Shown in pieces: positions 4,637-39,999 of a DNA stretch of 64,000 bases. A program made the position numbers and the translations under genes. Positions within the stretch are counted from its first letter, which is position 1; each line of letters begins with the position of its first letter. Under the pieces are notes generated by a model. The model was not told the origin of the DNA. It did no database searches and was given only the letters and a program-made list of their open reading frames with translations. This DNA is from Psammoneis japonica (Eukaryota): the NCBI GenBank assembly GCA_008632985.1, contig QPGO01000029.1:384874-448873 (forward strand). Direction: 5' to 3'.

Positions 4637-4999
4637 GCAGGCTCCCTAGTCTCGTCATGTTCATACCGGTAGCTAGAATAGGAGACAACTTTGAGACGAC
4701 ATTGCGTGTGGCTTTTTTCAAAAGCAAAAATGAGAAATTCGGTGGGAAAGAACGGAACTTATGCGTGACTTCGGGACAGAGACAGCTAAATGGATAGCAC
4801 AACGCACAGTGACGTCAACTGCTTTTTTTGGCTTCCGCCCATCCACTGCTTTTTTCTTCCCCTCTTCCCCACCCGTGCGTGATGCAGACCTCCCATGCTC
4901 TCCAAAGCTGGCTTGCCCCTCTAATCAGTGTTTTGTGCTGAGGTCTTTTGTCTGAAGCACTTGCTCACAGAAGCTCAAGGCCCCAAGGCTGGGGGGAGG

Positions 5000-6650
5000 T
5001 CAGAAACCTTGTTTTGAGTTGGCCCTGGGACTGGCTCAGCTTGCCTCGAGCGCACACAATGCTGAAAATGTGAGGGGAGAGCAGAGCGATGAGAGGCGAG
5101 TTTGCGAGCTCACCCACCACCATTTCTTGCAGGAGATCAGCAGTGAGAGAAATTTGCATCAAAATCAAACCAATGCCAAGTGCCAGTTGTTGAACCAGCA
5201 AGTCAACATGTCACCAAAAAAAATGGAGTCCCACCGTCGGGGGCTTGTGCTTCCTGTCGACACACTTGCCTTGGTGAGCTGCTGTGGTGGCTGTGGGCTG
5301 CCAAAGGCATCAATGCAAACTACAAACCTGCACAATAACAGGTGCCTGCTGATGCCAAATGAAGAATTGTGCAAACCAAATGATTCACTCCAAAGGGTGA
5401 GATCATGAAACCGAGAGGTGAGAGAATGGCGACGGTGAGAAACCTCACTCACACCGAATGAGCTGCATCAGGTGTCAAAGCATCTTCTCTTCAATGCATC
5501 CAGGTTTCTTGCTCTTCCTGTGATCTGGATGTTCCAACACACTGCTGCTGCTCGCATCAATGTTCTGCTGGCCAGCTGGGGCCAGTTGGCATTCGGGAAA
5601 AACTGGCCTCTCTGTCGCGGAGATCAAATCATCACCAGGTGCACCTGTTGCTTTGCAGCCAATGTCCTGCAATTCACAGCAGCACAAGTTGGTGCACTGT
5701 CCATTGTCAGAACTGTCAACCACATCATTGAACAAGTGTGGCGCACCTTGCCCCCCCCCCCCCTCAAAAAAAAATGATCCGCCACTTGAGCACGATGAAT
5801 CCTCTCTCTCACAATTCCACAGCACGGGCCATTGGTCAGGTCCATGATCCAACCATTGACCATCTCAGGAGTCAAATCAAAGAACTCCATTTTGGGGCAA
5901 AACCACCTGCACATGGGGTCCGCATGTTCAACGTGTCATGGTGGAAGAAGAAAAACACTGGCTTCACGACAGCCGCATTGCAAATGATGCCATCTGCACC
6001 CATTGCGAGTCTGCAACAACTCATTTGAAATCCAGGATGATGACCAGTGTCAAGTTGCATGAGGGGACTGCACATCCCATTTTTGTCCACACCACAGACA
6101 GGACAATTGACCCTCAACTTCTTGCACAAATTGTCAACATTGTTCTTGTCCAGGGCCAGCTGCAACTCATTGCCCATTGACCCAATGGCACACTTGTCAT
6201 TCACATTCTCTTCACCATCTTTGTGTTGTCCAAAAAACAAACAACATGTTTTGCATTGCATCAAGGCTTGGCCTCCAACACATTCCCAAAATGCTTTGGT
6301 CCAGTGCAGTGCCTTCCAAGCATGCCGCACAATCTCAGAGATGATGCGCTGCAAAATTGTCATGGATGGACAACATCGGTGCAGCAGCAGACATGTGCTC
6401 AAGTGCTGCAGGACTCCACAGTTTGATGTCCTTGCATGCTTCTTTCATTGCATGGCATTTCCTGGTCCATGGTCCATGACACAGTTCCAGAGCTGATGGC
6501 AGCCCCTTGAGGCAGTGTGTGTGTTCCCACTTCTCACTTCTTCAACAACACTTGACATCGTGGCAGAGGTGTGGGTTGTCTGTCAACTGCCTTTCATTGC
6601 CATTGATCCACTGGACCATCTTTTTTCTTGGATTTCCAGTCATCTCTCAA
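5000..6650 (-). mobile_element. Degenerate unclassified dispersed repeat (family A), coding-like
   Basis: Shares recognisable sequence with 39500-39900, 46900-48330 and 49290-49400 (e.g. VLEHPDH / LLEHPDH / VLKHLDP peptides and GTTGAACCAGCAAGTCAA). TA- and CG-depleted. Boundaries approximate. Confidence 0.55.
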
Positions 6651-6989
6651 ACATCATCTTGGCAAGTTTTTCAAACTTGCCCCTGCACTTCCATGGCCAC
6701 TTCTGAGTTGTCATGTCATGTGGTGTGCTTGGCTCATGCACTTCAGTTTCATTCATGGTTGATGGTTGTTCTTAAGAACAGAGTGATGCCAGAACAAATT
6801 GTGGCTGGTTGCACCTCATGGCTCATGACATCTTCCAGATTTCAGGGATCTTTCACCCACATGGGTCAGAATTCTCATCTGACATCACAGACAGGAAATG
6901 CCTCTGTCATGCTTGAAGTCAAAACAGCCCACAATGGCCAGTGTAAACTTTCAAACTTCTCACCCTGCAGTGGTTCAGTTGTGAACTCT

Positions 6990-8113
6990 CCAAGCATGTC
7001 ATCAGTTGAACAATGCTGCCCTTCTTGATCTGGTCAGTGAAACAGAAATGCCGAGTGCCAATTGCTCTGTGGACTGCTTCCCAGCACTCCTGTGCCCATT
7101 CATTTCTAACAGCATGGCACTCTTGTTGTCCTGGCAAAAGACATTCTTGTCAATTGGACTCACCTGATGTTCCATGAACAACTTTGTGCACAGAATCATG
7201 GTCATTGCATCATTGACCCTGCAAGTTCAGCCTCTGTGCTGCTTCAGCAGGTGTGGAGCTTTTGGCACTTCAATGCAGCCTGCACTGCTCCATTGCCTGA
7301 GTCCACAATTCCTCCTGTGTGGCATTTAAAATCAGGGCACACTGCAAATGATGCACCCACATGTTCACACAACTTGAACACTTGGAGGTCCTTTGTGACT
7401 TCATTTCACATCTGGTTCAGGCACTCAATGCAACAGACTGGCTTTCCCCCCAGCCCTTCTTGGTTGGCTCTCTGACACATGTGCACAATGCTGCAACAGC
7501 AGGGTGTGCATCCATGCAGCCTCTCTTGGGTTCAAAAAGTCCATTGGACACCCACGCATAGAATGTTTTTGCTTCATCAGTCAGCAATCTTGTGCTGCCG
7601 GTGTCAAATGGGTTTTCTCCAGCTGGCATTGTGGCAGCATCTACACTCTTGATCTCTTCCAGGAGCTGGTTGATGATCTTGTGAATGCAGTCAGTCATGT
7701 CAACTTTCACCTTGCACTTGGTTGTGGCTCAAGTCCAGGGCCATTCTGAGGCAGTCGTGCTTTTCTTTCCTCATGTCACAACAACTTTGCAATGGCTTCC
7801 ACACATCTTGTTCAGCCAGCTTGGGAATTCGTTGTTTGCTTTTGGATTTGCATGGCTTGACAGAAGGTCATCCACATGGAAATGTGTGGTGTGCTGCTTG
7901 CCGTTGACCAGTCAATTGGCAACAAACAAATTGCGTGGGTTGAACTTAAACCCAATCTTCTCCAAGTCCTTGCAAATTGCTTGTGCCAGCACAGCAGAGC
8001 TGCAACCAACATGCCACACACAGCTCCAATGACTTGGACATGATGGAGGGCTCTCTTCTCCTTTTCCATGACCACACATGATGGTCCATGCAGGTTGGGA
8101 TCAATGCTCACCA
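6990..8113 (-). mobile_element. Degenerate Ty1/copia (CoDi-like) RT/RNase H relic
   Basis: Peptides CGMLVAALLCWHKQF, VKVDMTDCIHKII and QDNKSAMLLEMNGHRSAGK correspond to copia RT and RNase H motifs; many stops and frameshifts. Confidence 0.85.
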
Positions 8114-8114
8114 G

Positions 8115-10190
8115 TGCACCAGCAACCATGTTCCTGAAGTTGAAAGGAGCATTGAAACCATCAAAGAGCAAACTCAAGCCACTGCACACTGCCTGACATG
8201 CAAGAAGATGGTGCCAAAGTGGATGTGCAGGAATGCTGTGATCAAGAACACTGTCATGTCAATGTGTGCCCACAGCAAGAAGAAATTTCTGACATGTGCA
8301 ATCCACACACCATCATGCAATGAAGAAACCTCAACTGTGACAAGCACTTTGAGCTCACCTTTAGTGAATTTGTCCTTTCTCACATTGAGAACAACCCAAC
8401 AAACACCACAAACATGCATGGCATTGACAGCACACATCTGCAACCATGCTTTGATGTTCCCAAGGGTGGCCACCACCAGCCCACTGTGAACCTGCACATG
8501 GGCAAACTTCTGAATCTCTGTGCAAAGTGTGCTGCTGCACACCTGATTGACACACATGTGCAAGTGCTCAAGAAGATGGCCACAGCACAAGGCATCAAAG
8601 ATCATTTGAAATTTATGGGCAAATGCAGAGACAACCTGTGTGATGCTGGTTGGACTGCATGAGTGGAAAATGACAAAGACAAAAGCAATGGAGAAGATGC
8701 AAACAAAGACAAAGAAAACAAAGACTGTGCCAAAAATGTTGTGACCAACTCAGAAGATGACAACTGTGAAGACAAAGTGCTGGACTCTGGTGAAGAGTGC
8801 AAAGAAGCAAACAAGATCCTGGCCAATGGAAGATCCAGCCCTGATCAACAGCATGAGAGCAATGAAATCAAAGACACAATGACTGTGACAACACTGAAGA
8901 AAACAAGGACAGCATGGAGCCAGAAGAAGACACAAAGAAACCCAAGAGGAGACAAAAGATGGGAAGGAGAAAGACTGGCAGATGATTCAACAGCAATGAC
9001 TGGAAGAAGAGCCAGGTCCAGCAGTGCTTTTTTCATGCCACAACACACATTCAGAAGCACAAGAACACATCACAAGAGAAGAAAGTTTGATTTGCAGGAG
9101 TGGCAGAGACACTGCAAAAGAGAAGCACAAGCAGAACAGACTCAAACACTGTCACCATTTGCAAACAAATGTGAGCCCCAATCCAGAGGATGACATTGAG
9201 TGTGATGCAGAAACAGCAACGACACTGGCACAATTCATGTGCAAGCTTGACAACCAACTCCAATCAGGAAAGGGCATTTCCTTTGCCCAGCAGCATTTGC
9301 TGCACAGGGTCTGAAAGTGTTTGGCCAGAGTGTGACACCTCGGAGAAGGAGATTGGACAACTCCAGCCATGACAGTGTGTGTGTTTTGCACCAACATCAG
9401 TTGAAGACATGATTTTGACTGAGAGGGCCAAGGCTGTGATTGCCTTGATGTTCCCAATGGAGAAGCAGATGGTTGCACAAAATGACAAATGGTTCAAATG
9501 GAAAATTGAACAGAGAATGGCTGGATGAGGATGAATCAGCCAGTCCAATGGCATCATTGGAAGGAGTGCCAATGACATCCATTGTTGATGCTGTCAAAGA
9601 GCCTGATGTGATGAGCATGGATGTGCCAAACACGTTCATCTGGATGCTGGTCCTGGAACCCAACAAGGGTGAAACCTGGCTGGGCAATGACAAAGATTGC
9701 AGGAGTGATGTTTGACATGCCAGTGAGCATTGACTCCAACCTGCATGGACCATGTGTGGCCATTGAAAAGTGGAAGAGAGTTCTCCATGTCCAAGTCATT
9801 GAAGCCATGTGTGGCATGTTGGTTGCTGCACTGCTGTGGCACAAGCAATTCACAAGAACTTGGAGAAGATTGGGTTCAAGTTCAACTCATGCAATTTGTG
9901 CATCGCCAATTGACTGGACAATGGCAAGCAGCACACCACACATTTCCATGTGGATGACCTGCTGTTGAGGCATGCAAATCCAAAAGCAAACAACAAATTC
10001 TCAAGCTGACCAAACAAGATGTGTGCAAGCCTTGGTGAAGTCATCACAACATGAGGAAAGAAGCATGATTGCCTCAGAATGGTCCTGGACTTCAGCCACA
10101 AGCAAGGGCAAGGTGAAAGTTGACATGACTGGCTGCATTCACAAGATCATCAAACAGCTCCTGGAAGAGATCAAGAGTGTGGATTCTGCC
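8115..10190 (+). mobile_element. Degenerate Ty1/copia integrase-RT relic
   Basis: NHVPEVERSIETIKEQ (integrase), AQQHLLHRGLKVFG, SPMASLEGV...DVPNTFI and LHVQVIEAMCGMLVAALLWHKQF (RT). Confidence 0.85.
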
Positions 10191-10480
10191 ATGGTGCACA
10201 AAATCTTGAACAAAGCCATGTTGTGCTGTCAGATGATGTTGTCCAGTGTGCTGCATGCACTGACATGCTTCTTGGAATGCAGTCTCATGCTTGATTGACA
10301 CTTGATTGTCTTGTCAATTGCACACAGCATCTTAACTCAGAATGCCCAAACAATGTCAATGCAGAGGATTGCACCTTGTCTCTGTTCATTGTGTGTCTCA
10401 GGTGGAGTTGCTGTCATGTCGTTCCTCTCATGGGATTGGCACACATGTCTGGTGATGTCATTCCTTTCATGGGAGTGATG

Positions 10481-10577
10481 NNNNNNNNNNNNNNNNNNNN
10501 NNNNNNNNNNNNNNNNNNNNNNNNNNNNNNNNNNNNNNNNNNNNNNNNNNNNNNNNNNNNNNNNNNNNNNNNNNNNN
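10481..10577. other. Assembly gap (97 N)
   Basis: Run of N. Confidence 1.
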
Positions 10578-10599
10578 GACAAGCTTTTTGCCTGGTTTA

Positions 10600-12900
10600 A
10601 ATGCAAAAATGGCTTGAAATCCCTCATGTTGGGAATTCCAGCCTTGCAGCACAGTCTGAGTGCTTGCTCTGTGCTTGCAGCTTCCCTCTTGGTGCAGCCT
10701 GTGGCACCCTGTTCTGCCATTGGAGCCACAGCTCCAGATGATGCACTCTTGTGCTTCTTCTTTCTCTTTTTTTTTCTTCTTCTTCTTTGACAGCATGCTT
10801 GCATGTGATTTGCTTTCTTGATGTTCTTCAACACAAAGAATCTGGCTTGGTGCAAAAGCACACAGCCTGCTGACATCATTCACTCAAAACACTGTGACTT
10901 GTTTGCCAATCTTCTTGTCCAGCAGGCTGGGCTTCGCCCAGCACTTGGCCATCACATGTTGCACAGTGCTTGCTCTTAACATCCTTTAGACTGTGGATGT
11001 TTGCTGTTGTGTTCTCTGTTCCAAGCTTCACACACCCCATCCAGGCATGGTGCAGTCTTTGTCCAGGGTGTCCACTCCTGCATTTGTGAGCAGATTGAGC
11101 TTGGTCTTGGCTGGCCACACATTGCACACCAGCCTCCAGTTTGCTGCCATGCTGAGGGCAGAACCATTGTCAAGGATGATCTCATCCATCTCAATGTTGT
11201 TGTTGGCTTGGTTCATGCTTGTCTCTGGTCTTTCATTTGCCAGTTGCAACCTGTGGCATGCAGTGCTCCTGCTTTGGCTGGCATGGGTTGGTCAGTTAGA
11301 TCTGGCATTGTTGTTGATGGCTGCTCATGTTGTTGCCATCCACCAATGAGTTGTCATCATTGCCAACTTGTGTCTGTGCATGACTCTGTCTCTCAATGTC
11401 TGGCTTCCTTCCAGCAATCTTGAACCAACTGCTGTGCACAACGTCTTGTTTTTCATGCTTGCAGTCTGGGGACTTGTGATTGTTCAGTTCACCACAACAG
11501 CAACTCACCACATTTTCTCTGGTTGCTCTTCTGGGCATGGCTGTGGTCCTTTGAATTGTCAGACCAGTTGTTGCTGTTGTCGTCATTGCCACTTCTGTTC
11601 TTGTTGTCTTTTTGCTGATTGTTCTTCATCTTGCATTGGTTGCAAGGAGATTGTTGTCTTTTGGATGGCTCAACAGTGCATTGATTGCCTTCTTTAGAGT
11701 CTTTGGACAGGTGTCTTCACCCAGACCACATTCTCTCACAAAGATCTTCTTCAAGGCAGCTTGCAGCTCTTGCAGCAGCAACCATTGCTGTTCTCCATGA
11801 AAAGGCATGTCATCCATGTCTCAAACACTGACTCATTTAGTTCATCTTGAAGTGCAGAGTTTCCATCTTGGCACTCCTTGGCAGTGTGCACAAATCCATC
11901 TAACGCTCTGTCTTCCAGTCCTTCTTTTGTGGCATCTTGCTGATTCTTGATTCTTGAAAGGCAATTGTGTCTCATTCTCCTGTCACCTCACATCTAGAAT
12001 GTTTTTCTTCAGGGCCCCAGTGAGTGCATGGAACAGATGTCAACTTCTCATTGAGTTGGGTGTGAGGGATTGAATTGCTTTCAATGACATGATCAGATCA
12101 TCTCCAATGCTGGAGAAACTGGGATCAACTTGCATTCTCTGCTTTGTTTGCTTGATGTGCAGCAATTGTCAAAAATCTTTGCAAATGCAGGAGTTGTCTT
12201 GTTCTCTTTGAACTCTTTCACTGTTTCACAGTGCCTGCTTGGCTCTGCTTCATGCTTTTGTTCCAGCCATTTGTCCTTGCCCTCTTTCATTTGCAGTGTC
12301 ATTTGGTGTGTCCTGCAGCATCTTTTGCAGGCAGCATTGCCATGGACACTCTCATGGTGGGTTTCTTGGAAATGCAATCCTTGCATTCAATGTCCTCCAA
12401 AGACCTTGCCATGTGCATGCCTTGCTCACACTCCTTCTGTGTGTGGTGGATGAATGCAGCATTGCAAGCATCACTGTTTGGTGATGAAGGATGGAATTTC
12501 ATCTCAGGCTAAAAGTGCTTCTCAGTGTTGGTCTTCTTCTTTGGGTCAGAAGAGCTGTGACTCTTGTCACCTCTGCAACCACAACCTTGGCCTTGATTGC
12601 TTGTTCCACCACCTCCTCTCCCACTCATTGTGCAGGTGTTCAGCATTTCAACTGGCTGCATGCAAGCCATTGTTTGCAAGCACCAAATGCAGTGCTGGCA
12701 ATTCTTTGGAGTGAACATTGAACCGGCAAGCCATTGTCACCAAAAAGGAATCCTGCTGGGCTTTCTGTGCTGCTTGACACACTTGCTGTTCTTGTTTTGA
12801 CCAAAACCAGAGAACTCTTGTTTTCAGCAACTTTTTGTGTGATTTGCTCTCAATGACTTGTGGGCTTGGAGCCAGCTCTGTTGCTGCAGCCCACAGCAGC
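10600..12900 (-). mobile_element. Degenerate copia gag/protease relic
   Basis: Zn-knuckle-like SCCCGELNNHKSPDC and protease-like IILDNGSALSMAAN...LLTNAG. QKECEQGMHMARSLED is shared with the relic at ~40160. Confidence 0.75.
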
Positions 12901-13575
12901 TTCTCTTCTCTCACACTCCTTGTTGTTGCTCATTCTTGTGCTGCTTGTTGTTCTGTTCTTGACAGATTCTCACACCCTTGCAGCCACCAGACTCTAGACA
13001 CTGCACACCTCATGGTGGCTGGTCATTGTTGTCTTGTGCAAACATGCTCCCTCTGGCCTTTTTTGGAGCCTGGCTCAGGCCAACAACATGACTTGGCATT
13101 GCAGCTCATGGCAATTGGTTGTGGTGCACCTCATCTCAGACATCCCCTGGCCTGGGGCAACAGTTGGCAAAGCTGTGGCAAAGTTGAATCTGCCACTCAG
13201 CTTCATGCTTTTTCTAAGTTTTGGGGCCCAATCGAAAGCTGTTGACCAACAAAATGGAGATGCATGGCAAGTGGCTGCTCTCCTGGAGCATCTTGGTGAG
13301 ATTCGATTGCCGAAAACAACCAGAAAGTTGTGGAATGATTTTCATCCAGATTCAGGCAAGACTCTCATCGTCGTATGGTGAGCAGACTAGCTCGATCGCT
13401 TGTAGAACTGGGAACGTTTACAGATTGCGTTGCTCTAAAAGCGTTATCGCACAAGATCGTTTCAGAGTCTGCTTGTGATGTGCACTTTCCTTGCGGTTTA
13501 AACGACAGTTGTAAATGAATGGTCAGGCACGTGGGATAAGAACGGACGGAATGAAAAAATGACATGCTTGGAACA

Positions 13576-15899: not shown

Positions 15900-17143
15900 T
15901 GCTGTGCTATGCTTTGAGCATTTTTGTCTCCCACCGACAGAGACGATGTTGCGTTCATCAAGACGGTGCCTCGGTGCCACAGTGAAATCGTCAAACAATG
16001 TAAATCAGCGCTCTTCATCCAGCAGCGAATCCACCATTGCATCAACTTGTTGATGATTCCACTGAACAATGGGACCATGGCAGGTGCCGGAGAAACTTGG
16101 CTGATTTTTTTTCGGCTGTGTGGTGATGCACTGGTGCGGTGGCATGAAGTCATTTTGCGTCCCGGTTCTGAGTCTGATCCAGGTGTTTCATTTCTTTCTA
16201 GTTTGCTTGGGTCACCTGAGAGCTCTTGTGAAAAGCTTTTGAGAACTTGTTGTGGTTTGTTGAAGATGAAATTCGCTCGCATGACTGGAGACAGAGGCGC
16301 CACTCCAAGGTTCATTCTCTGGAATTTGTGCATGACGAGGAAGACTTCATTCACAAAAAGAGCAAAAGCCTGGTGTGTCCCATTGCAAACAAAAAAGAAG
16401 TGGCCTTTGCTCATGCATCAGAGACAGAGGATGATGTTGGCAATGCAGCTCACATGCTGAGCTGTGCTTGGGAGCAAGTTCACAGATTTAGAAATTTTCA
16501 TCTCTTCACTTGAAGAGTGTTCTCACTGACTCATTTGCATCATCAAATGCCATGTCCCTCAAACACACAATTGGCAATCCCAAGCAAACCTGCTTTTGGA
16601 TTTGTCACTTTTTTGCATGAAGCAGCACCAAGTGGCTGAAGACATCGAAGCACCCAAGGCTGTCACAACGAGTTTCAAACTCCAGTGATGGGCATTGGCC
16701 GCATTGTTTGCATGACATTGCCGTGGGAGAAAACCCAGTCTGCCTTTGTCAAGTGTGGCGCATCTTTGAAATTGCATCTCCAGTTTAAAAGGGAAATGGC
16801 TGCGATGTGAACAGCCACGCTGCCGCATCAAAAAGAGCATCTCTTGCATCAGTTGATGGTTGCGGCAAAAGATGTCAGGTCTGTTGACATGCTCTCTGCA
16901 CAAGCTCAGTTCTTTTGTTCTGTCACTTTCTTCTTGACATGTGATTTTGACCAGTTGCTCCTTGACAACTGATTTTGACCAGCTTGCATCTTTTGAATGA
17001 TGACAAAAATTCATGGCTCTGTTTGCACCTGCAATGCTCTCTCCTTGACAACTGAATCATCCTGGATGGAAGTGGCTGCAGCAGCGGACATTGTGAGCAA
17101 CAAATGACTCTGTGTCAAACAGCACTTGACATGACAAACAATG
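15900..17143. mobile_element. Degenerate unclassified repeat DNA interrupted by the young copia element (continues after 24257)
   Basis: TA-depleted sequence with broken ORFs, continuous across the GGAAA target-site duplication. Confidence 0.45.
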
Positions 17144-17148
17144 GGAAA

Positions 17149-17424
17149 TGACAGGATTTGAACAGGATTTGGATGCGCGCGAAGCATCGCGCGCTGTTTA
17201 GTTTACCGCGCACAGTTTTGTGTGCTTTAGTTCCGCGCGTTCACGCGCGATGTAGTTTGCTTTCGAGCCACAAGGCTCACAAGAATAATAACAGTAGCCC
17301 GATTATACCGACTTACACGTCTTTCGGCTCCTGTAACGGTCTCTGAGCGGAGACTCATCTGCTATTTAGACAGCAGTAAGGAGTTATTGTTTGAATTCTT
17401 GCCATTTGCCTTCATTTTCTGTCA
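17149..17424 (+). repeat. 5' LTR (276 bp)
   Basis: TGACAG...CTGTCA inverted termini; differs from 23978-24252 by 8 substitutions and 1 indel. Confidence 0.98.
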
Positions 17425-17438
17425 GATTAACAGTCTTG
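17425..17438 (+). promoter_or_regulatory. Putative primer-binding site complementary to a tRNA-Asn(GUU) anticodon arm
   Basis: GATTAACAGTCTTG directly follows the LTR. Its reverse complement CAAGA-CT-GTT-AA-TC has anticodon stem-loop geometry. Confidence 0.65.
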
Positions 17439-18363
17439 CTCATTGTCAACCCATTGAGCAACCGCCATCGTCGTCGTTGATTTACCAACGACGCTATTTC
17501 AATTCTACGTGGACCTCCGTATATATTCTACATACATCGGCAAGTCTACGCGCATTCAATACCAGGGCATCGGCAGGAAGTTAACGTCACCGTCAAGTCT
17601 CCTTACCGCTGGATATCTGGATTGATTATACTACCTTTGATCGCTGAAGACATACATTCAACGGTCATATCCAAGTCTATCCTTGATCCTCATCCCTTGA
17701 TATACCTATTCATCGGTCAACGGTCAAGAACCCTGCATATTCAAGGATCTTCGTCGCTGAAGACACACATATATATACATATCTTCACGGCCAAGAACCT
17801 GTACCCACTCTTCGGACCACGGTTTTGCTGCCACTCTACAAGCACACCGAGTCCATTGTACCTGATCTACCCCGGACCACTGGTGCTCTACAGTTCTGCC
17901 AGGTCCACGAGGACGACTGTGAGAGCAAGCAGCCGTGATTGCAGCCTGCGTTGGGGCGAGGGTGCTTTCCCGCGTTTGTTCGTTCGTCCACAGCGCCCAA
18001 CGCCTGCGTCAACTGGCCAGCCTGATCGGGAAATCCAACCGACATAAAACAAGAACGGTTCGGGGGTCTTGTCCACCTCTAGTCAGCTTGCCTGCAGGGG
18101 TTTGCAACCCGCTGCTCCGCTCGCAAGCAACCCAAAGCGCCGCTGGCTGCGGGTTCGGACGTGCCGGCACAACTCTGCGGACCGGACAGGAAGTTTAGCA
18201 CTTGACAACGAACGGGATAACAAAGCCCGGCGACTTCTGATTTTAAGACAGTTCAAGATTTCAAGTCAAGTCTGTTTCAAGTCAAGTCTGTTCTCACCCA
18301 AGTTTCGAGTCCACCTTCGCTTCCCAACCAGAATTGATTGTCCTGACACCATTTTTGTCTGCC

Positions 18364-21300
18364 ATGGTTCTCACTCGTCAGCAACAAACCGATGGTTTCG
18401 AGCACGTGGTTGGAACCGTGCTTGCCCAAGGTGCTGGGAGTCCTCTTCGTTTGGCTTTGGCCCAAGACGGCACGGACTCATGTCAGGAACTGTTCACGTT
18501 CATGCCGTCCCAAATCGACTCGCTTGAGTGCAACAACGGCACCAATGCAATCCCTTTGCCCCGTGGTTGTAAGAACATGTTAGCAGCACTGGTCAGTCTG
18601 TACATTGTCAAAGCACACAAAGGTCTTGACGTTGCCAACGACTCCTCTTTGTTCACGCATGACGAGTTCCTTGCCCACCGCCTCAGCCCCGACTGCATGT
18701 CTTCTGTGTCCATCGGCAGCTCACCCCTTGCACCTCCACATGTCACCAACCCGACCAAGGCACGCGACCCGGTGCGAGACTTCAAGCGAGGCATCAAGCG
18801 TGATCCCACCGCTTTCACGGCTCTCAAATCCGACAAGCAGTGGCACACTTGGCACACCTCACTTGTGGCACAAGCCCGTGCCCAAGACGTCGAGTGCATT
18901 CTAGACTCGTCGTACAAACCGACCAGCCCCGAAGACAAACTGCTCTTTGCCGAACAGCAAAAGTGCATGTTCGCCGTCTTCGAACGCATCCTTCTCACCG
19001 ACAAGGGCAAGGCTCTCATTCGCGAAAATGTGGGGTCCTCTGACGCACAGACCGTCCACCGCTCCTTGTCTGCATGCGCGCTTGCCTCCACCCGTGCATC
19101 TGTCGAGTCCTCCACCCTGCTCACGCACCTCACCACCGCACGTCTTGGTGATGGCACTTGGAAAGGTCCGACCCACGGGTTCATCCTTCATTGGCAAGAT
19201 CAGTTGCGCAAGTGCGAGGCACTCATCCCCGCCAGCGACCACTTCTCTGAAGGACAGAAGCGCGTCATGCTCGAGAATGCCGTGCATCCTGTCGAGGAAC
19301 TCCGTGCTGTCAAGAACCAAGCTGATCAGCATCGTACGCAGAGTGGCAAGAGCCTCACATGCGATCAATGCTGTGGCTTGCTCCTCTCCGCGGCAGCTCA
19401 GTGCGACAGCACGTTTCAACCCAAGACGACACCTCGAGCTCCCCGACGCGCCATGTGCGCACACGACGTCTGCTCCGAGGAACCGTCCGACGATGTGTTC
19501 TACGACATTGACAGCGACGTTGACGTCCTTCAAGCCAATGCTGCCTGCACTCGTGGTCCCAGCCTCACCGGTGTCCAATGGAGACGTCTCCCTCCCGACC
19601 ACCAACGGCTCTGGGATTCGTTGCCCGATTCCTCCAAGGCGATCATCCTTGAGCACTCTCGTCCGCCTCCCCGCAACCCGCGAGCCAGCAACCACCATGA
19701 GTCTGTTACGGCCAACCTTCACGACCAACACCTTGGGAGTGACGGTGATGTCAACTTGTCCAACACGACTCCTGCTGACTGTGGTGACCCCGCTGCACAT
19801 GTGGACGCCACTTCGGACAATCCCATCCTGGCGCACCTCACCAAGCGCAAGCCACTGCCACCCGGTGATCTGCAACGTCTGTTGTCTCCTAACCAAGCCC
19901 CCAATGCCAGTCGACCGGGGCCATCCGCCGCTTCCTCTACCCCGCCAGCTTCTGCAGATGACACAGAACTCAACGGCCGCACTTGCCGCCGCGTTGACAA
20001 CCACAATGTCATTTGCTCTGCCTCTGCTCATCGCTCCACACGCACTGGCGCTCTAGTCGATCGTGGGGCCAACGGCGGCATTGCTGGCGATGACGTTCGC
20101 GTCATTGCACGAACCTCCCGCCAAGTCGACGTTCAGGGCATCGACGATCATCAATTGGTGGACATCCCCATTGTCACCGCTGGTGCCGTCATTGAGACCC
20201 AGCGTGGTCCCGTCATCGCCATCCTCCATCAGCACGCATGCACGGGAAAGGGCAAGACCATCCATTCCTGCGGCCAGCTCGAATGGCACAAACAGGATGT
20301 CAACGATCGCTCTGTCAAGGTGCCCAACGGCTTGCAACGCATTGCCACTCCTGATGGCTGTGTCATCCCCATTGACATCAAGGCTGGCCTGCCTCATGTT
20401 GCCATGCGACCTCCACACTGACGCCGAATGGGACACCCTGCCCCATGTCATCCTTGCCGGTGATGACACATGGGACCCTTCCGTCCTCGATCACTCTGTC
20501 ACTGACGACGACCAGTGGTACGACGCGATCTCTGATCTACAGGACGATCCCACTGCCAACCTGTTTGACGAATGCGGCAACTACCGTCACCGTGTCGTTG
20601 TCAACGAGACCATCTTGTCCGCTTCCTTGTCTGCCGATCACGCATCCGCCCTCGATGATCACCTCATTCCGAACGACGACGTGTTCTACGAGTGTCATCT
20701 GCATGCGATTGACCCCACGGGCGATGACGTTCCACCTCCGGAGCGCACTGTAAAGCCCAAGGACCCCCCCTTCGAGTCTCTTCGGCCTTGCTTTGGCTTC
20801 CTACCTGCCGATGCGGTCCGTCGTACTTTTGACTGCACCACGCAGTGCGCCCGCATGCCCGCCGGTACACACCTTCGCAAGGCCTGCAAATCACCCAACC
20901 CCGCCCTTAATGTGCACCGCCGCAACGAGCCCATCGCCACTGACACCGTTCATGCCGACACCCCGGCCGTCGACTCTGGTTGCACCAGCGCCCAACTGTT
21001 TGTTGGCACCGAGTCTACCGTCACTGACGTCTGCGGCACCAAGACGGACAAAGAGTTTGTCAACACACTCGAGGATCAGATCCGTGAACGTGGTGCACCA
21101 TCCAAACTCATTGGCGACCGTGCTCAAGTTGAGATCAGCAACAAAGTGCTCGGGATCCTGCGCCCTCTTCATCTCCAGCTGGCAAAGTGAGCCTCACCAG
21201 CAACACCAAAACTTTGCCGAGCGTCGATGCCAGACTGTGAAGCGCATGGCGAACACTGTCATGGACCGTTTTGGTTCGCCCGCCCACACATGGCTGCTGG

Positions 21301-23960
21301 CGCTCATGCACGTGTGCTTCATGCTCAACCACACAGCGTCCCCATGTCTCCACTGGCGCACGCCCTTCGAGACTCTCACTGGATCCACCCCGGACATCAG
21401 CCCATTGCTTCGCTTTCACTGGTGGGAACCAGTGCACTTCCACCTCGATGACTCCGATTGGCCGTCCGAATCTCGTGAGTTGCGTGGACGCTTCGTTGGC
21501 ATTGCTGAGCACGTCGGCCACCAGATGACCTTCAAGATTCTATCTGACGAGACTCAGAAGATCCTCTGCCGGTCCAACGTTCGCTCCGCCACCCCCGATC
21601 CTGCCGTTCGAAACCTGCGTCTTGATCCTCCTGATGGGGAGCCACCTGAACCCATCATCAAATCTCGCCATGACGACAACCCCGTCGATTCTCCTGATGG
21701 GGAGATCAGGACACCCAAGATGCCAGTTTTCGATCCGCAAGACATCATTGGACGTACCTTCCTCATGCAGCCACAAGAGGACGGACAACGCCACAGAGCT
21801 CGTTCGTCAAGGCCGTCGAAGACCACGAATGGAAAGTGAACGGCAATCCTGAGCTCACTAAGTTCGTCTGCTCTGTCAACAATGACGAATACGAGGAAGT
21901 CCTTGCCTGCAATGACATCATGAATCACATTGAGCAAGAAGACGAAGACACCACTGTTTGGAAATTTCGACGCATCGTGTCACACGAAGGCCCTCTGAAG
22001 CCTCACGACCCAACCTGGAAAGGCTCAAGCTACAACATCATGCTTGAATGGGAAAGTGGGGAGATCACGTCCGAGCCTCTTGCCATCATCGCCAAGGACG
22101 ACCCCGTCACCTGTGCCATCTATGCACGAGAGAACGGACTCCTCGACACGGATGGATGGAAGCGGTTCCGCACCATCGCGAGGCGCCAAAAGAAGCTATT
22201 TCGCATGGCCAACCAAGCCAAGCTTCGCTCCTTCCGCACTGCACCTCGCTACAAGTACGGATACGAAGTTCCCCGGAACTACAAACACGCCATGTCACTA
22301 GACGAACGCAACGGCAACCGCAAGTGGGGAGACGCAACTAATCTCGAGATGGACCAACTCGACGAATACGAAGTCTTCCATGACTGCGGGCCCTTCAAGT
22401 CTTCCACTCCTCCTGCGGGACACAAGAAGATCCGAGTCCACCTGGTGTACGACGTGAAACACGACGGTCGCCACAAGGCACGACTCGTAGCCGACGGGCA
22501 CCTCACGGACGTACCTGTCGACAGTGTCTACTCCGGAGTAGTCTCCCTTCGTGGCCTTCGGCTGATGATTTTCCTGGCCGAACTCAACGAGCTGGAGACA
22601 TGGGCCACCGACATTGGCAATGCCTGCCTTGAAGCCACCACCAAGGAGAAGCTTTACATTGTAGCTGGACCCGAATTTGGCAAACTCGAAGGACACATCC
22701 TTGTCATCCACAAGGCACTGTATGGACTCCGCAGCTCCGGTCTCCGCTGGCACGAGCGCTTCGCCGACTGCCTGCGAGCTGAAGGCTTCTTCCCCTGCCG
22801 CGCCGAACCCGACATTTGGATGCGCAGGAACGGCGACCACTGTGAATACATTGCCGTTTATGTGGATGACCTCGCCATTGCCATGAAGGACCCTCAATCT
22901 TTCGTCGACACTCTCACGGAAAAGCACAAGTTCAAGCTCAAGGGTGCGGGACCCATTGAGTTCCATCTGGGTTGCGACTTTTCCCGGGACCCCGACGGAA
23001 CCTTGTGCCTGTCTCCGCGCAAGTACATCGAGCGCATGGTCGACAGCTGCGCCCGACTGTTTGGGGAGAAACCTGCCACCAACGCCCTGTCACCTCTGGA
23101 GAAGGGTGACCACCCCGAACTGGACACTTCCGAACTGCTGGGACCCGATGGCATTCACAAGTTCCAGTCTCTTGTTGGTTCACTCCAATGGGCAGTGTCC
23201 CTTGGTCGAATTGACATTGCCACGGCCGTCATGTCACTCTCTAGCTTCCGAGCTGCGCCCCGTCAAGGCCACTTGGATCGTGCCAAACGCGTCTGTGGGT
23301 GCCTCTCCAAGATGCGACACGGTGCTCTCCGCGTTCGCACGGAAGAGCCCGACCATTCGGATCTCCCTGCTCCGGCCTGCGAATGGATGCATTCCGTGAT
23401 GGTGAAGCAGAAGAGATGATCCCGAAGGACGCTCCATTGCCCCTTGGCAAGTTCGTCACTGCCACCCACTGCGTCGATGCAAACTTGTGCCATTGCATGC
23501 TCACCGGACGCTCTGTCATGGGAATGCTCCACTTCCTCAACAAATTCCCGGCTGATTGGTTCTCCAAGAAACAAGCCACCGTGGAGACTGCAACCTGCGG
23601 ATCTGAATTTGTTGCCGCAAGGAATTGTGTTGAGCAGATTGTCAACCTGCGCATCACCCTGCGCCACCTTGGCGTCCCGATCCGCAATGTCAGTCACATG
23701 TTCGGTGACAACAAGTCGGTTGTAGACAGTGCCACCATCCCGCACTCCAAGTTACACAAGCGACACACCGCACTGTCGTTCCACCGTGTGCGTGAGGCAA
23801 TTGCCTCTGGTTGCCTTGAGTTCCACTTCATCGAAGGCTCCCGCAACCCTGCTGACATTCTCAGCAAGCATTGGGGCCACTCCCAAATCTGGGACCTTCT
23901 CCGCCCCCTCATGTTCTGGAACTTCATTCCATCCGAAGTCGAATCTGTTTCTGTGGCTCC
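18364..23960 (+). pseudogene. gag-pol polyprotein of the copia element, frameshifted near 20410, 21160, 21800 and 23390 and with many Tyr->Cys/His changes
   Basis: DFKRGIKRDP (gag), LVDRGANGG (protease), WQSEPHQQHQNFAERR (integrase), HKARLVADGH / KALYGL / YVDD (RT) and ADILSKHW (RNase H). Confidence 0.93.
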
Positions 23961-23966
23961 TCAAGC

Positions 23967-23977
23967 AAACTGGGGAG
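23967..23977 (+). promoter_or_regulatory. Polypurine tract
   Basis: AAACTGGGGAG immediately upstream of the 3' LTR. Confidence 0.7.
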
Positions 23978-24252
23978 TGACAGGATTTGAACAGGATTTG
24001 GATGCGCGCGAAGCATCGCGCGCTGTTTAGTTTACCGCGCACAGTTTTGTGTGCTTTAGTTCCGCGCGTTCACGCGCGATGTAGTTTGCTTTCGAGCCAC
24101 AAGGCTCACAAGAATAATGACAGCAGCCCGATCACACCGGCTTACACGTCTTTCGGCTCCTGTGACGGTCTCTGAGCGGAGACTCATCTGCTTTTAGACA
24201 GCAGCAAGGAGTTGTTGTTTGAATTCTTGCCATTTGCCTTCATTTTCTGTCA
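23978..24252 (+). repeat. 3' LTR (275 bp)
   Basis: Direct repeat of 17149-17424, followed by the TSD GGAAA. Confidence 0.98.
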
Positions 24253-24615
24253 GGAAAGCTTGGCATTTGTTGTTGATTGTTGCTTGCACAGCACTTGGTC
24301 TCTCTCCACTCTGCAGCAGCTGTTCATCATTCACAGTCGTGAGTGCAAGGCAGCAAAGTCTGCGCATCACACACACTTGGTCACAGCAAAATTGCCATGA
24401 TGCATGTCTGTCTGTGTCCCACCTGGTCTGGAGGAATGCAACACAGCTGTCCATTGTTTGCACTGCCTTGCAGTTGCTCATCAGTCATCCACACATTGGC
24501 CAGTCATGTGACATGTGGCAGCAAGCAAGCTTCTCATCTGCTGCAGCAAAGTTGGTGCACCACCCAATCTGGGCAGCGGGACAGGAGAATGGGTGGGAGG
24601 GTTGTTTTGGCAGTG

Positions 24616-25449
24616 CTGTGCAACTGTTGTGATGCTGCAGCCTGTGCATGGGCACCACCCCATGCAGTTGCTCACAGTGTCAATGCAACTGCTCCCACAT
24701 TGGATCCACTCTTGGCCCCTGATTTTTTGTCTTCCTTTTGCCAACACAAAAAGAGTGAAAGGCTCCTTCAAACTTTTCATGTTGAAACAACCAGTTTTTT
24801 CAAATGAGTGGATGGAAAGGTGTCAATCTGTTCAGCCTGTCCACCCTCCTCTTGTCCACATCACAACAGCAATTTGCACCACCTTGGTCACTCTTCAGTC
24901 ATCAAAGTTGGTGCACAACCCAATTTGGATGGCGGGAATCCAGAACCTTTCATGCACCTCCTCCACCGTGACGTGGTCGCATGCCACAAAAAAAACATTG
25001 AGAAGGGTGGGTTGGACTGACTGGGATGTGCTGTTGCAATGCAATGAGGGGAAGAGTGATTGCTGCCTGACAAGATGAAAGGGAGAAGAAAGTGGAAAGT
25101 CAAAAGGAAACCTTGAACAAAGGTGAGGCAAAGGCATCAAAAAAGGGTCAAGCGGTGTCCCACTAAAAACCCAGCCTGTGCCCACCAACTTGCTTCCAGT
25201 CTGTGCAATTGCTGCGATGCTGCAGCCTGTGGGTGGGTGCCACCCCATGCAGTGGCTCACAGTGTTGGTGCAGCTGCTCCTGCATTGAGTCCACTCTTGG
25301 CCCCTGATTCTTTGTGTTTCTCCAACCAAAAAGAGTGAGAGGATCCTTCAAGATCTTCACATCAAAGCAGTCAGTTTCTTCAAACAAGTGGATGGAAAGG
25401 TGTCAATCTGCTCAGCATGTCTGTCCTCCTTCTGCCCACATCATGACAG
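24616..25449. repeat. Diverged direct repeat of ~250 bp (24616-24869 and 25201-25449)
   Basis: Collinear alignment by eye, e.g. shared TCCACTCTTGGCCCCTGATT and AGTGGATGGAAAGGTGTCAATCTG. Confidence 0.9.
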
Positions 25450-25531
25450 TGTGCAGGGTGGGCGGCTGGGTGGGTGATGGAAAACAAGCAAATTGAAAAT
25501 GACAGCTGGTCCGTTTTTTGCACATTCTTGA

Positions 25532-26028
25532 CCCTTCAACCACCAGGGGAGCAAATCTCCATGGGTGGAGATTTGCTCTGCTCAAGGATGTGTGACGTGT
25601 CATGCACTTTTGTGATGATAGAATGCACACAGTGAAAAAATGTCATGTCGTGTGCAATCTGCACAAAGCACACCACGTGCATTTGCTTGTTGGGAGCAAA
25701 TCTCCACCGGTGGAGATTTGCTCCCAGGGTGTGGCATTGTGCTCTGTTTGTGATGGCAGTTCATGACAAGCTGCATTGTTGTGGGTTGAGATTTAGTTCC
25801 TCTCCACACACAGATGAAGCTTGCAAAAAACCTGGTGTTAAAAGTCGACATTGAACTTTCTAAATTGCAAAAAGGGTGCCTCCAGATTTTCGGCGAATGT
25901 GCGTTCCAGAACAAAATCGCGCGAACAAAACATTGTGTGTGTCTGAAATTACTTCATTTGCCACATTTGTGATGCAAGCGAGCAAATCTCCACCCGTGGA
26001 GATTTGCTCAAGTCCGGTGGTTGAAGGG
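25532..26028. mobile_element. Non-autonomous piggyBac-like element (MITE, 497 bp)
   Basis: Perfect 13-bp TIR CCCTTCAACCACC / GGTGGTTGAAGGG that extends imperfectly to ~48 bp. Flanked by TTGA (25528-25531) and TTAA (26029-26032). Three internal GAGCAAATCTCCA...TGGAGATTTGCTC palindromes. Confidence 0.85.
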
Positions 26029-26899
26029 TTAAGAATTTTGCCATTTTCTGTTGTTTTGTGGTGTTTTGTGATGTCACATTCTGCCATGCATGTCCAGTGG
26101 AATGTGGGTGGGTGTGTGAGATCCCACAAAGGATGGACAAAACACCTCAACGGCACTGCATGTGCCGGCCAGCTGGTGGCTGGTTGCCCCCCTTGCAACA
26201 CAAGAGCAATGAAAACGATTTGTCATTGCCAGTGCAACCTCTCACCTGCAGCGCTTTTTGAACTGAGCTGCAAATTTAGCACATCAACACTTGCAGTGTT
26301 TTGACAATCAAAACTGAAGGAGTGTGTTGCTCCAAATGCAATTTTTAGCTGGTGTCACATTCTTCATGAAAAATGCTCTCTGCACACTTGCTTTTTCATT
26401 TTTTGGAGCTTGTGTTTGTGATCTACTTTAACTCAACTGATGTCCAAACATGCCCTGTTTCTCCAGACACCAGACAGTCAGTTTGCACTGAGAGTGCTGC
26501 AAAACAATGTCCTCTCACCTCTCACCCATCTCATCCACCAGCCCTCTTTTTGTGCACACTTTTCACTCAAATCTCCACATGTCATGGTCAAGAAGAAAAA
26601 GCAAACTGGAGTTGGCCATGAACCATCAACACAAATCAGGAACTGGCAACAGCAAAAACAGAAAGTGTTCCAAAGGGCTGTCCTTTCCAAGACAATTCCC
26701 CACCCACCCCAATTGATGCTGAAGGAGCAACAGCCACTCCCTCCAACCTCACCTCTGACAATGCCATCATCACTCTCTCCATCACTCCCACTGACCAAAA
26801 TCCTGTCAGCCTGAAACCCTCCTCAGAGCACTTCACTTTTAACCCCAATGCCTTTGACAAAAACCACAAAGTCTCCAACAAGCACTGCATCATGCAGTG

Positions 26900-29880
26900 G
26901 TGAAGAGGAGGGATGGCATCTCATCTTGCACCACCACTCAGGAGCAACAAGCTTGCACCTTGATGTGTGCATTGCAAATGCCCAACATGGCTTGCCCCAT
27001 TGTGAGGTTTGTGGTTTGTGTAAATGACCAAGAAGCAGTTGGGCAAAATGTGGGGAAATGCCAACAACAAAAGCAATGGTCAATGCCACACTGACAACAC
27101 AAATCTTTTGTCTCTTTAGCAGCAATTGGGGTCTCCAGTTCTCCAGAAAAACCTGCTGACAAACCCAAATCATTTTCCAAGGACTGTGCCAATGCACACT
27201 TGGCCTAAATCCAAAAACTGTTTGTTGACAAACAAAGCAGGGAAAGATTGCCAGAGTGGCCTTTGTTGAGAACAAAGAAGATTGCAACCCCGCTGGTGTC
27301 CTCATAATTTTTTTCCTCTGAGATCTGCAAAGCCTTTGTGCTGCATTGGTTGGGAAAACATCCTGACACAGTGCAGTCATCCAACTCAAGAGACATGACT
27401 CTCTTGTCAAAGATGAGCAAAGATGGAAGCAAAAAATGAGCAAACAAATGGTTGTGCAACACGTCTGTGTGTGAGCTCCACAATTGCATGCTGGCAGATT
27501 TGACTTTGCTTGTGGTGCCAATGGCAAGACCCTCATTGGCGACACCAGGTTTCAGCACTTTTCAATTTCCATGCAATGACAAAAATTTAACAGCAGTCAA
27601 CACAGCATGTGTCAATGCAGCAAGATTGCATGAGTGCACACTTTCTACAAGACAAATTAAGCAGCTTTCAAAGAAGGCTTTTAAAAGAAATGCAGGTGGA
27701 GCAGAAATGGTTGAAGGTTGTGAACAATGACCCTGGAAACTCTGAGAGCCATGACAGTGAAACTGGCAATTTGGAGAATCAAGTTGTCCATTGTCAAGAG
27801 GAAGCATTTGGCTCCAACTTCAATCACCTTCATTCTAAAGCTCAAGATGCAATTGTGACCATTGCTTGTGGCAACATGAATGGTCAGGATCATCCTCACT
27901 GCAGCCACATTTTAGGTGAATGCAAGAATTGCCCATCCCATCTAACTCCATTCTTGTTGGAACAGAGTGAAAGTTCCAATGCACCCCAAGTTTTGTTTCA
28001 AAGAGATTTGACTGTCAAATGTTGTTCCAAGCATGGCATGTTCAGTGTTCACAAAGCATGTCCTGTTTGTCAGGCAAATCCAGATGGAACAAGGACACAA
28101 AGGTCAAATGAAAAACCTTGTTGACAAGGTTCCCCAAACCAATTGGGTGTTCACAAAAGAGCACCACATTCAAAAGTTTGAAGCTGCATCATCATCTTTC
28201 TCATGCAGCCGTTCTTGGGAACAATTGCTGCATGTGGAAATGTGTTGCAAGGCAATTGAGTTAATGCTCAACAGCATTTTCACACAAGCTGACTGCTCTG
28301 AGTGTCTTCTGTCTGAGTTTGACAACCAAATTCATGACGGGGGTTGTTGTGGCAACAACTGAACAATGTCCATTGAAGGCAGAGTTTGCAATGTGACAAT
28401 TGACAACGAGGCTGAGAAAACATGTTTTGTGCATCTCTCTGATTCTTCCAAGCAAGATGATGCTGCAACTCACACTCACTTAAAGAAGTTGGTCACATGA
28501 TCAAAGAACTGGGGACTGCATCAGGCGTGACTTGTGATTTGGAATCACACCAATGGTTGTGCCAAACAGCATCACATGCTTTTTGTGCTGTGCTTGTTGT
28601 CTCTGTGTTTGCCCACAAATGCAAAGTTGTCTTTGATTGTGATGTTGGAGCACCTGGACTTGGCAAAAAAGAATGCTGGAGCCTGCATTGAATCACTTGC
28701 ATGCCAAAAAATGCAGTCCACAACTGTTGCAGAAGTCAATTGTGAGGACGGGAAAAATTTGATCTGATGCTTTGGTCAAGGATGTTGTGGCAGAGCACAG
28801 TTGCTCATGGGAATGTTGAAAATTTCTTGAAAAGAAAGAGAGCACCAATGACACAATTGGTGACAGCAAACATGCTTTGAGGAAATCTCTTTGAAAGTTG
28901 AATTAAAGGGTGTGTCATCTGTGGGAAGCAGACAAAGTTCTTGGTTCTTCAATTGAAGTCAAGTTGCCTGGATTGGCACAAGTGCACATGTGCCATTGCG
29001 GCATTGGCGCTGTGCACCAGCTTCAATTTGAACCCCTTTTCCCATTGGTTGGGTTGCCATGCAATGCATTCCTTGTGCTTGTGATGGCTGCCTGGGTCAG
29101 CTCAAACAACCTTGGACAAACAACATGTCAGCCCAACCAAGCACCTTTGACATGCAACTGGCAACCAAGCTTTTGCAAACTGTGGCCCATCTTCTTTGAG
29201 AGACTGAATGACTGGCAAGTTTGTCAGGTGTTCTGAACAACTGAGAGTGACAAAAACATGGTGCAGTTGGTTCACAAATGTGTGTTGGATGTTTTGACTG
29301 AGCAAATGGCAGAGAAAATTGTTGTGAACTGCTGCACCACCTTGTCTTGTGAATCTGAAGAGGGCTTCCATCTGCTGCAATGGGGATGAGCTGCCCCACA
29401 AAGCATGGGAAGATGCAGTGTGGAATGAGTTTGACTCAAATGGGTTTGCAAAGGAATGCATCCAAGCCATGTTTCAAGCCAGAGGATGGCGCACTCCTGG
29501 AGATGCTGAACGCTGTTAGAGAAGAGTGTTGTTTGAGCAAATTGTGGTTGCAAATCTTGAGCTGAATGAGCTGTCAGCCTCTCTGCAACTTCCAAGGATG
29601 TGCAACAGGAATGAGGCTTCACTTCTTAATCCACATCATTTGACTGAGGATGAGCATGAAGCCATTCTTGATGCAGTCCACCAGCGTGAGTCACTGGATT
29701 ATTTTGAGGATTGTTTGGAGGAGGAGGAGGACAGTGAAAGTGATGAGCCTGAGGAAGAGAATGATGATGACAGGGAGGAGGTCAGCATGGGAATGGACTG
29801 CAAAAGTGATGAGCCCAAGGAACAAAATGGCAATGGGAAAATGAATGAGCACAGTGGTTGTCACTTTGCATCATGCAACT
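26900..29880 (+). mobile_element. Degenerate DNA-transposon transposase relic (DDE/D type, tentatively Sola-like)
   Basis: Ordered decayed motifs QADCSECLLSEFDNQI, HLSDSSKQD, HTNGCAKQH and VGAPGLGK, comparable to DYxE...SD...TDGCxxQY...GHGK; upstream Cys cluster and acidic tail. Confidence 0.6.
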
Positions 29881-29899
29881 AGATGGACCATCTGACACA

Positions 29900-39950: not shown

Positions 39951-39999
39951 ATGTTGGAACTCTGCATTGTGTGATCAACAGAGGAGGAGGTAGAACAAG

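Follow-up and report, generated by a model that had tools for sequence, protein, structure and literature searches.

Why would a retrotransposon keep its reading frames open yet lose the tyrosines (Tyr) of its conserved motifs? The question arises at a Ty1/copia long terminal repeat (LTR) retrotransposon in the diatom Psammoneis japonica, which spans positions 17149-24252 of a 64,000-nt stretch of contig QPGO01000029.1 (GCA_008632985.1, 384,874-448,873 of the forward strand), referred to here as the window. The element is a young, dead copy with a 5-bp target duplication and four frameshifts, and its coding body occupies 18364..23960. An earlier note on this DNA, made from the letters alone, had proposed that Tyr is systematically replaced by cysteine (Cys) or histidine (His) in the coding body by mutation of TpA dinucleotides. 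We estimate at roughly 80% the probability that these replacements reflect, in the coding sequence, a process that acts on DNA and changes TpA to CpA or TpG, that is, A:T to G:C on either strand. Membership in the CoDi groups of diatom copia elements, as given in the earlier note, is putative.

All 13 peptide strings quoted in the earlier note were found in translations of positions 18247-24030. An alignment of 21 sequences that included intact homologues placed a consensus Tyr at the quoted sites (DIGNAYL, TATYGSEF, THYVDANL, LRYLGVP, SYMFGDN, HWGY, ERRYQT, DTVY, TDVYG, TTQYAR, HQYA, DGYVIP, and LxYxxY). The second Tyr that had been expected in ANLYH and HQYAY is not a consensus residue, as these positions fall in variable columns. 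Homology searches returned 1928 proteins at an E value of <=1e-10, of which 120 were listed, and the 79 with lengths of 1780 to 2000 aa were used for column counts. At least 70% agreement among these 79 defined 875 conserved columns. The element retains Tyr at 14 of 47 conserved Tyr columns and has Cys at 15, His at 13, Phe at 4, and Trp at 1. Only 77 of the 828 other conserved columns differ, with each other residue retained at 79 to 100% (Fisher test, odds ratio of 23, P = 1.5e-21). Cys and His are indeed the two products of a single transition in the TA of a Tyr codon. None of the 120 listed homologues has this replacement pattern; the maximum for the two residues together was 5 of 25 conserved Tyr columns. 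The composition of the 1855 codons of the element changes in the same sense, with Tyr at 1.13% (homologue median, 3.82%), Cys at 2.86% (0.97%), and His at 4.91% (3.57%). The gag-protease reading frame contains 3 Tyr residues, as had been reported, in a length of 685 aa from Met to stop rather than 695 aa.

Tyr codons are not the only ones to lose TA: checked at synonymous and codon-spanning sites as well, TA is scarce in each of the three codon phases. There are 21 TAs in TAN codons (88.9 expected), 15 in NTA codons (57.4 expected), and 13 across codon boundaries (90.4 expected). Per 100 codons, these counts correspond to 1.13, 0.81, and 0.70, compared to medians of 3.88, 3.97, and 6.94 in 79 metagenome loci. 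Silent TAs are depleted at least as strongly as Tyr codons. Over 18250-24030, the ratio of observed to expected dinucleotides is 0.19 for TA and 0.94 for CpG. Metagenome relatives of the element numbered 299, and the TA ratio of 0.19 is lower than in all of the best 80 of these, which were kept for comparison (median of 0.72, minimum of 0.31). The 110 differences at conserved columns include 34 TA-destroying transitions, 28 of them at Tyr; the other six, at third positions or where codons meet, comprise two each of T>A and I>V and one each of S>G and I>M. The remainder are of many kinds, with 5 A:T to G:C transitions outside TA, 7 G:C to A:T transitions, 37 changes of transversion type, and 27 that require several steps. 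The excess of 34 TA-destroying transitions over 5 A:T to G:C transitions elsewhere indicates a TpA-specific process and not a general drift from AT to GC. Since the noncoding 3' LTR is affected along with all codon phases, the process acts at the level of DNA. A Tyr-specific or tRNA-level effect is ruled out by the loss of TA in all codon phases and in noncoding DNA. Mutagenesis at WA sites of the polymerase eta type was also ruled out, as AA is not depleted (observed/expected ratio of 1.07 to 1.23).

Three independent lines of evidence give the direction of change as TA to CA or TG, as the earlier note had it: the Tyr residues of the homologues, the LTR pair, and other copies of the element in reads. 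The two LTRs belong to one insertion, as attested by an intact GGAAA target duplication, and 8 substitutions and 1 indel separate them. At seven of the substituted sites, the 5' LTR reads TA where the 3' LTR reads CA (4 sites) or TG (3 sites); the eighth substitution lies outside TA, and the indel deletes the A of a TA. Thus, TA has been lost at 8 of 15 sites in the 3' LTR and at 0 of 15 in the 5' LTR, while the reverse arrangement, with TA in the 3' LTR and CA or TG in the 5' LTR, was found at 0 sites. Changes hit 7 of 30 TA nucleotides but only 1 of 246 others (odds ratio of 75, P = 7e-7). Both LTRs contain 21 CpGs, and none has been lost. The alternative that a process like repeat-induced point mutation (RIP) added TAs to the 5' LTR is contradicted by the homologue Tyr residues and by the CA/TG alternates described below.

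Public runs of one sample that contain the stretch were aligned to positions 16000-25500; no RNA is listed among these runs. Word depth was 65.6 to 93.9 in the single-copy flanks and, summed over variants, 44,485 to 226,704 in the element; the summed depth is not a copy number, but it points to a very abundant element family. Among the 40 best-supported of 252 variant places, 8 are adjacent double differences in which the window has CA and other copies have TG or vice versa. At 4 places, the window has lost a TA that makes up 55 to 84% of the read depth, at 2 it keeps a TA that is mutated in other copies, and about 7 contrast CpG with TpG or CpA. The shares of CA and TG at the listed places range from 7:93 to 90:10, and one run (X1) has 248 variant places, of which 223 involve transitions. 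A CA/TG alternate is most simply explained as two independent outcomes of one ancestral TA. The reads also contain other copies that differ by 1 nt in length at 20413-20415 or carry 2 extra letters at 21159, 1 at 21802/21803, or 1 at 23398/23399. These length variants at all four frameshift sites indicate that some copies lack the frameshifts. Contigs derived from the reads match the window with 0 differences at 24225-25500 and with two at 16000-16955. The two left-flank differences, assembly versus read contig, are TA versus TG at 16787 and CG versus TG at 16818.

The earlier note had gone on to suggest that elements are inactivated by missense loss of Tyr rather than by stop codons. One part of this is borne out, as there are no in-frame stops in the 1855 codons. 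Affected elements keep open frames yet lose conserved Tyr residues because a change from TA to CA or TG never makes a stop codon. The copy also has four frameshifts, however, and most copies of the family seem to be TA-poor. Given an abundant family in which the reads suggest that most copies are similarly depleted, the depletion either came after amplification or failed to prevent it. Missense loss of Tyr as the cause of inactivation therefore goes beyond the present evidence.

The changes are distributed evenly between strands and unevenly along the element. Of 52 inferred sites, 30 became TG and 22 became CA (P = 0.33), and the order of the two outcomes along the element shows 30 runs where 26.4 are expected (z = 1.04). 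Both strands are affected about equally, site by site and without clustering. No neighbor-base rule for the strand that changed was apparent, as the 52 sites gave no clear preference. The bins from 17200 to 17799, which take in the greater part of the 5' LTR and the first part of the leader, contain 43 TAs compared to 45.3 expected, while the ratio is 0.1 to 0.2 through the body of the element and rises to 0.54 in a partly spared zone of the reverse transcriptase piece (about 22100-22850). The LTR differences show that the loss of TA is at least partly postintegration. With 1 difference in 246 non-TA positions of the LTRs versus a loss of about 80% of TAs in the body, we estimate that TA sites are about 100-fold more mutable than others. 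The near-equilibrium TA ratio of 0.04 in the old flanking blocks described below suggests a similar mutability ratio. From these observations, we infer a hypermutability that is specific to these sites and has acted steadily, not in one burst.

The element lies in a window that is a mosaic of blocks with sharp borders. Gene-bearing blocks have TA ratios of 0.41 to 0.56 and CpG ratios of 0.77 to 1.17, and eight host open reading frames (ORFs) have TA at 0.38 to 0.51 and CpG at 0.91 to 1.07 across all codon phases. About 28 kb of single-copy, nongenic DNA forms depleted blocks with TA at 0.00 to 0.06, CpG at 0.05 to 0.15, and both CA and TG near 2. One of these blocks lies at 6101..13251 (TA, 0.04; CpG, 0.06), and the others are at about 24351-35101, 38651-42301, and 46851-53951. 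These values show that the same purge, joined by change of CpG to TpG or CpA, is almost complete in the nongenic DNA neighboring the element. Depletion of TA alone was found in narrow border zones and in the copia body. The depleted blocks contain 209 ORFs of 75 aa or more, and the 80 longest gave no Pfam match at the curated cutoff and two weak subthreshold hits. Old repeat pairs within these blocks have 178 adjacent double mismatches, of which 80 are CA/TG alternates, while the second most frequent class numbers 4. One tandem pair in depleted DNA is at 24611-24869 and 25197-25449. The TAs that remain in the depleted blocks are in a TTA or TAA context in 72 of 88 cases versus 49% expected (P = 3e-10), 23 of them in TTAA. 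A TA with a 5' T or a 3' A thus seems relatively resistant, a bias that is not present in the young element (15 of 54).

The footprint is not unique to this contig. An unrelated metagenome contig (L078) has 14 Tyr, 8 Cys, and 6 His residues at 28 conserved Tyr columns, and its TA ratio is evenly low at 0.31. An intact-looking metagenome locus (L030) has a TA ratio of 0.75 in Tyr-type codons, 0.09 in NTA codons, and 0.04 at codon boundaries, the profile to be expected of an active lineage exposed both to the same pressure and to selection. Two further metagenome loci (L003 and L005) present a CpG counterpart of L030, with CpG at 0.00 to 0.06 at silent codon phases and kept in phase 1.

The process behind this footprint would act in place on chromosomal DNA and would be targeted regionally to silenced or repeat DNA, where it would make TA about 100-fold more mutable, much like CpG under methyl-CpG decay. 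The mechanism that we prefer, though only tentatively, is a symmetric base modification or an enzymatic deamination at TpA that is laid down on silent chromatin. Candidate chemistries would be an oxidized thymine that mispairs with G or the conversion of adenine to inosine. The palindromic target, the spared promoter-proximal zone, and the colocation with CpG decay fit an analogy with methyl-CpG. A more far-reaching proposal, which we regard as rather doubtful, is that diatoms, or at a minimum this lineage and the source of L078, possess a dedicated mutator of TpA that is targeted through chromatin and mirrors fungal RIP. In that proposal, a symmetric, heritable mark or an enzyme attacking silenced TpA would raise A:T to G:C mutation about 100-fold over background and, together with CpG decay, would strip both palindromic pyrimidine-purine steps from repeats, disabling elements without stop codons.

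Several observations weigh against a TpA process acting in place on this copy. Postintegration action is seen at only 7 to 8 sites of the 3' LTR. Majority contigs from low-coverage runs are only about 1 to 3.5% from the window, e.g., 19 letters in 902 bp at 18806-19707, where about 20 to 30 TA losses are inferred. With so small a divergence, most TA losses must be common to other copies, and they either predate insertion, in which case a depleted element was amplified, or recur with an outcome determined by the site. This process does not explain why the 5' LTR and leader are intact or why the zone at 22100-22850 is half spared. The CpG ratio of 0.94 in the element shows that TA can be purged without CpG, and the two purges may be unrelated processes. 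The G+C content of 18364-23934 is 57.5%, higher than in all 80 metagenome relatives (median of 48.5%), and the loss of TA, which we estimate would add only about 3 to 4 points, does not account for this excess. Finally, the runs that contain the stretch come from one sample that is likely the assembly's own source, so they are probably not independent of it, and the assembly of a high-copy repeat may be a mosaic.

Other explanations must be set against the same data. A neutral bias that makes TpA and CpG hypermutable throughout the genome, with purifying selection keeping them in genes, would turn the element into a case of untargeted decay. All nongenic DNA in the window is indeed poor in both dinucleotides, the TA ratio of the host ORFs is lowish in each codon phase, and L030, with its normal Tyr codons and almost no silent TA, is what pressure plus selection would produce. 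The host ORFs keep their CpG at silent positions as well, however, so the loss of CpG is regional, and the borders of the depleted blocks are sharp. Such a bias also fails to predict that about 650 bp of one young element (bins 17200-17799) should sit near expectation while the rest is at 0.1 to 0.2, or that two LTRs that were originally identical should have lost none and 8 of their 15 TAs, respectively. We therefore consider a genome-wide bias unlikely. Editing coupled to reverse transcription, by an adenosine deaminase that prefers a 5' T or U and acts as APOBEC does but on adenine, would modify RNA or cDNA before integration so that copies arrive mutated. This would suit a footprint that occurs in a family of retroelements whose many copies are mutated differently, and editing of a late single-stranded intermediate could, as a model, affect the 3' LTR but miss the 5' LTR and leader.

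One-sided change is expected of such an editor, but plus-strand T>C (22) and A>G (30) are similarly frequent and interleaved, and both occur among the LTR differences. Moreover, the transition from spared to depleted sequence is step-like with no gradient, and the same CA/TG alternates occur in about 28 kb of single-copy DNA, an inverted pair, and a tandem pair, which makes editing before integration improbable. Still less credible is a sequencing or assembly artifact in which modified TpA and CpG bases of silenced DNA are miscalled and the real DNA still reads TA. Some room for this explanation is left because the sequencing platform is not on record and the assembly was probably built from the very runs that reproduce the flanks. 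However, the footprint recurs in the unrelated contig L078, read-derived contigs agree with both flanks as described above, host ORFs of 427 to 618 aa in the window are uninterrupted, and, in our judgment, ratios of 0.00 to 0.04 over tens of kilobases exceed what miscalling would give. A DNA-level TpA process acting on the element and its nongenic surroundings thus remains the explanation that we favor.

The structure of the element is that of an LTR retrotransposon of the copia type. The left target-site duplication GGAAA (17144..17148) is identical to the right one (24253..24257), which directly follows the 3' LTR. The 5' LTR (17149..17424, plus strand) is 276 bp long, has TG...CA ends with the terminal inverted repeat TGACAG/CTGTCA, and contains 15 intact TAs. 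The 3' LTR (23978..24252, plus strand) is 275 bp long and contains 7 TAs, with its changes all in the second half (alignment columns 141-238). The untranslated leader (17425..18363, plus strand) has TA at expectation to about 17800 and lower beyond. The closest intact homologue among the matches listed (P0003, 1859 aa) is colinear with the element over residues 1-1848 in five frame pieces, all on the plus strand. By tblastn, the gag-protease piece (18364..20412) aligns with residues 1-692; it has 683 codons with 3 Tyr, 21 Cys, and 31 His residues and gave no Pfam match. A frameshift at about 20413 leads to the integrase-like N part (20414..21175, residues 693-925), and the integrase-like C part (21162..21812, residues 922-1140) is bounded by frameshifts at about 21160-21175 and about 21800. 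The reverse transcriptase piece (21794..23398, residues 1135-1669, 73% identity) matches the copia-type family RVT_2, the sole Pfam family recognized in the element (E value of 5.5e-29; 101.9 bits versus a cutoff of 31.6). After a frameshift at about 23399, the C-terminal piece (23401..23934, residues 1671-1848, 75% identity) occupies the RNase H position of the polyprotein and has no Pfam match.

A profile of the homologues gave weak matches to retroviral integrase chains (E values of 0.004 to 0.006) at profile positions 907-1008, upstream of the reverse transcriptase. The Pfam integrase family was not found in two intact homologues either, in which only RVT_2 was recognized. Neither tblastn nor blastn found a second copy of the element inside the window. 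A protein search with the gag-protease piece returned 57 proteins, the best at 45 to 51% identity and none a copy of the same family; the Tyr content of these relatives is normal, with a median of 3.74% and a minimum of 2.3%. A search of a viral contig collection gave 45 pattern matches and no relative of the element.

The window has other features of note. Inside a depleted block, an inverted pair at 7632-8111 and 9723-10191, which has 86% identity over 480 bp and adjoins a gap of 97 N at 10481-10577, carries CA/TG alternates at 9 of 12 adjacent double mismatches. A 4.4-kb degenerate 7-bp satellite at 41952-46362 (unit CATCCAC, about 630 copies) has an extreme strand asymmetry of 49% C and 7% G, zero TA, and near-normal CpG. 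In a normal block, a tandem duplication of about 184 bp at 93% identity (2237-2600) lies just downstream of an ammonium transporter ORF (2909-4645, minus strand) with relatives at 57 to 61% identity in Bacillariaceae, Pseudictyota, and Thalassiosira and a similar one in Durusdinium; these relatives fit a diatom host. Host genes in the normal block comprise one at 55957-57299 with repeats of a KNLGRWINRQR-type motif, a 464-aa ORF rich in repeats at 59351-60742, and one for a coatomer delta subunit (protein atlas score of 0.97) at 61003-62370.

To our knowledge, all well-described repeat-directed hypermutation systems work by cytosine deamination (RIP, methyl-CpG decay, and APOBEC) or RNA editing (ADAR). 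If confirmed, a TpA-specific, strand-symmetric A:T to G:C process on DNA would be a new mutational signature, and it would probably signal that a major group of marine algae has a DNA modification or editing activity of a new kind. Searches of the literature, which excluded subscription journals, and term look-ups in PMC2806351, PMC9998398, and PMC9258296 brought up no account of hypermutation directed at TpA, either in diatoms or in other organisms; the terms searched in PMC2806351 returned no mutation patterns. For the annotation of diatom repeats, the process matters because affected elements look intact to gene callers, with long ORFs, despite Cys or His at the tyrosines of catalytic motifs. 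TA-type differences between LTRs would supply a built-in clock and a polarity marker for the dating of insertions. The process would also account for large "dark" blocks that are free of TA and CpG and match no family.

RIP changes C:G to T:A, mainly CpA to TpA, and thereby makes both TA and stop codons. The process described here resembles RIP of Neurospora and other fungi in that transitions at a preferred dinucleotide hypermutate DNA, riddling transposon copies and sparing genes. Its polarity is the opposite (TpA to CpA or TpG, A:T to G:C), so the C:G to T:A change of RIP is absent and no stop codons can arise, and the 5' LTR, which is equally repeated, is untouched. Diatoms have DNMT4 enzymes related to the RIP factor RID, the function of which is given as unknown in PMC9998398. 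Editing by APOBEC3 (G to A) or ADAR (A to G) is likewise enzyme driven and cripples retroelement copies with clusters of transitions, and ADAR prefers a U 5' of the edited A. These enzymes produce one-strand clusters before integration, whereas here both strands are changed without runs, the two LTRs differ, and DNA that is not part of a retroelement is affected. Depletion of CTAG in enterobacteria, attributed to very-short-patch repair that converts T:G to C:G in a fixed context, is similar in that a repair bias erodes TA-containing words into CA and TG; it is bacterial, tetranucleotide specific, genome-wide, and slow, while here every TA is subject to change, in certain regions only and at about 100 times the background. 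There are also parallels with methyl-CpG decay, which likewise proceeds site by site and symmetrically between strands, removes a palindromic dinucleotide from silent DNA, ends in CA and TG, and co-occurs with the loss of TA in the flanking blocks (CpG ratio of 0.05 to 0.1). Here, in contrast, TpA is the target and A:T becomes G:C, and loss of CpG is found in the flanking blocks but not in the element. Given TA at 0.19 versus CpG at 0.94 in the element and the loss of 8 of 15 TAs and 0 of 21 CpGs in the 3' LTR, the loss of TA is not a by-product of CpG decay.

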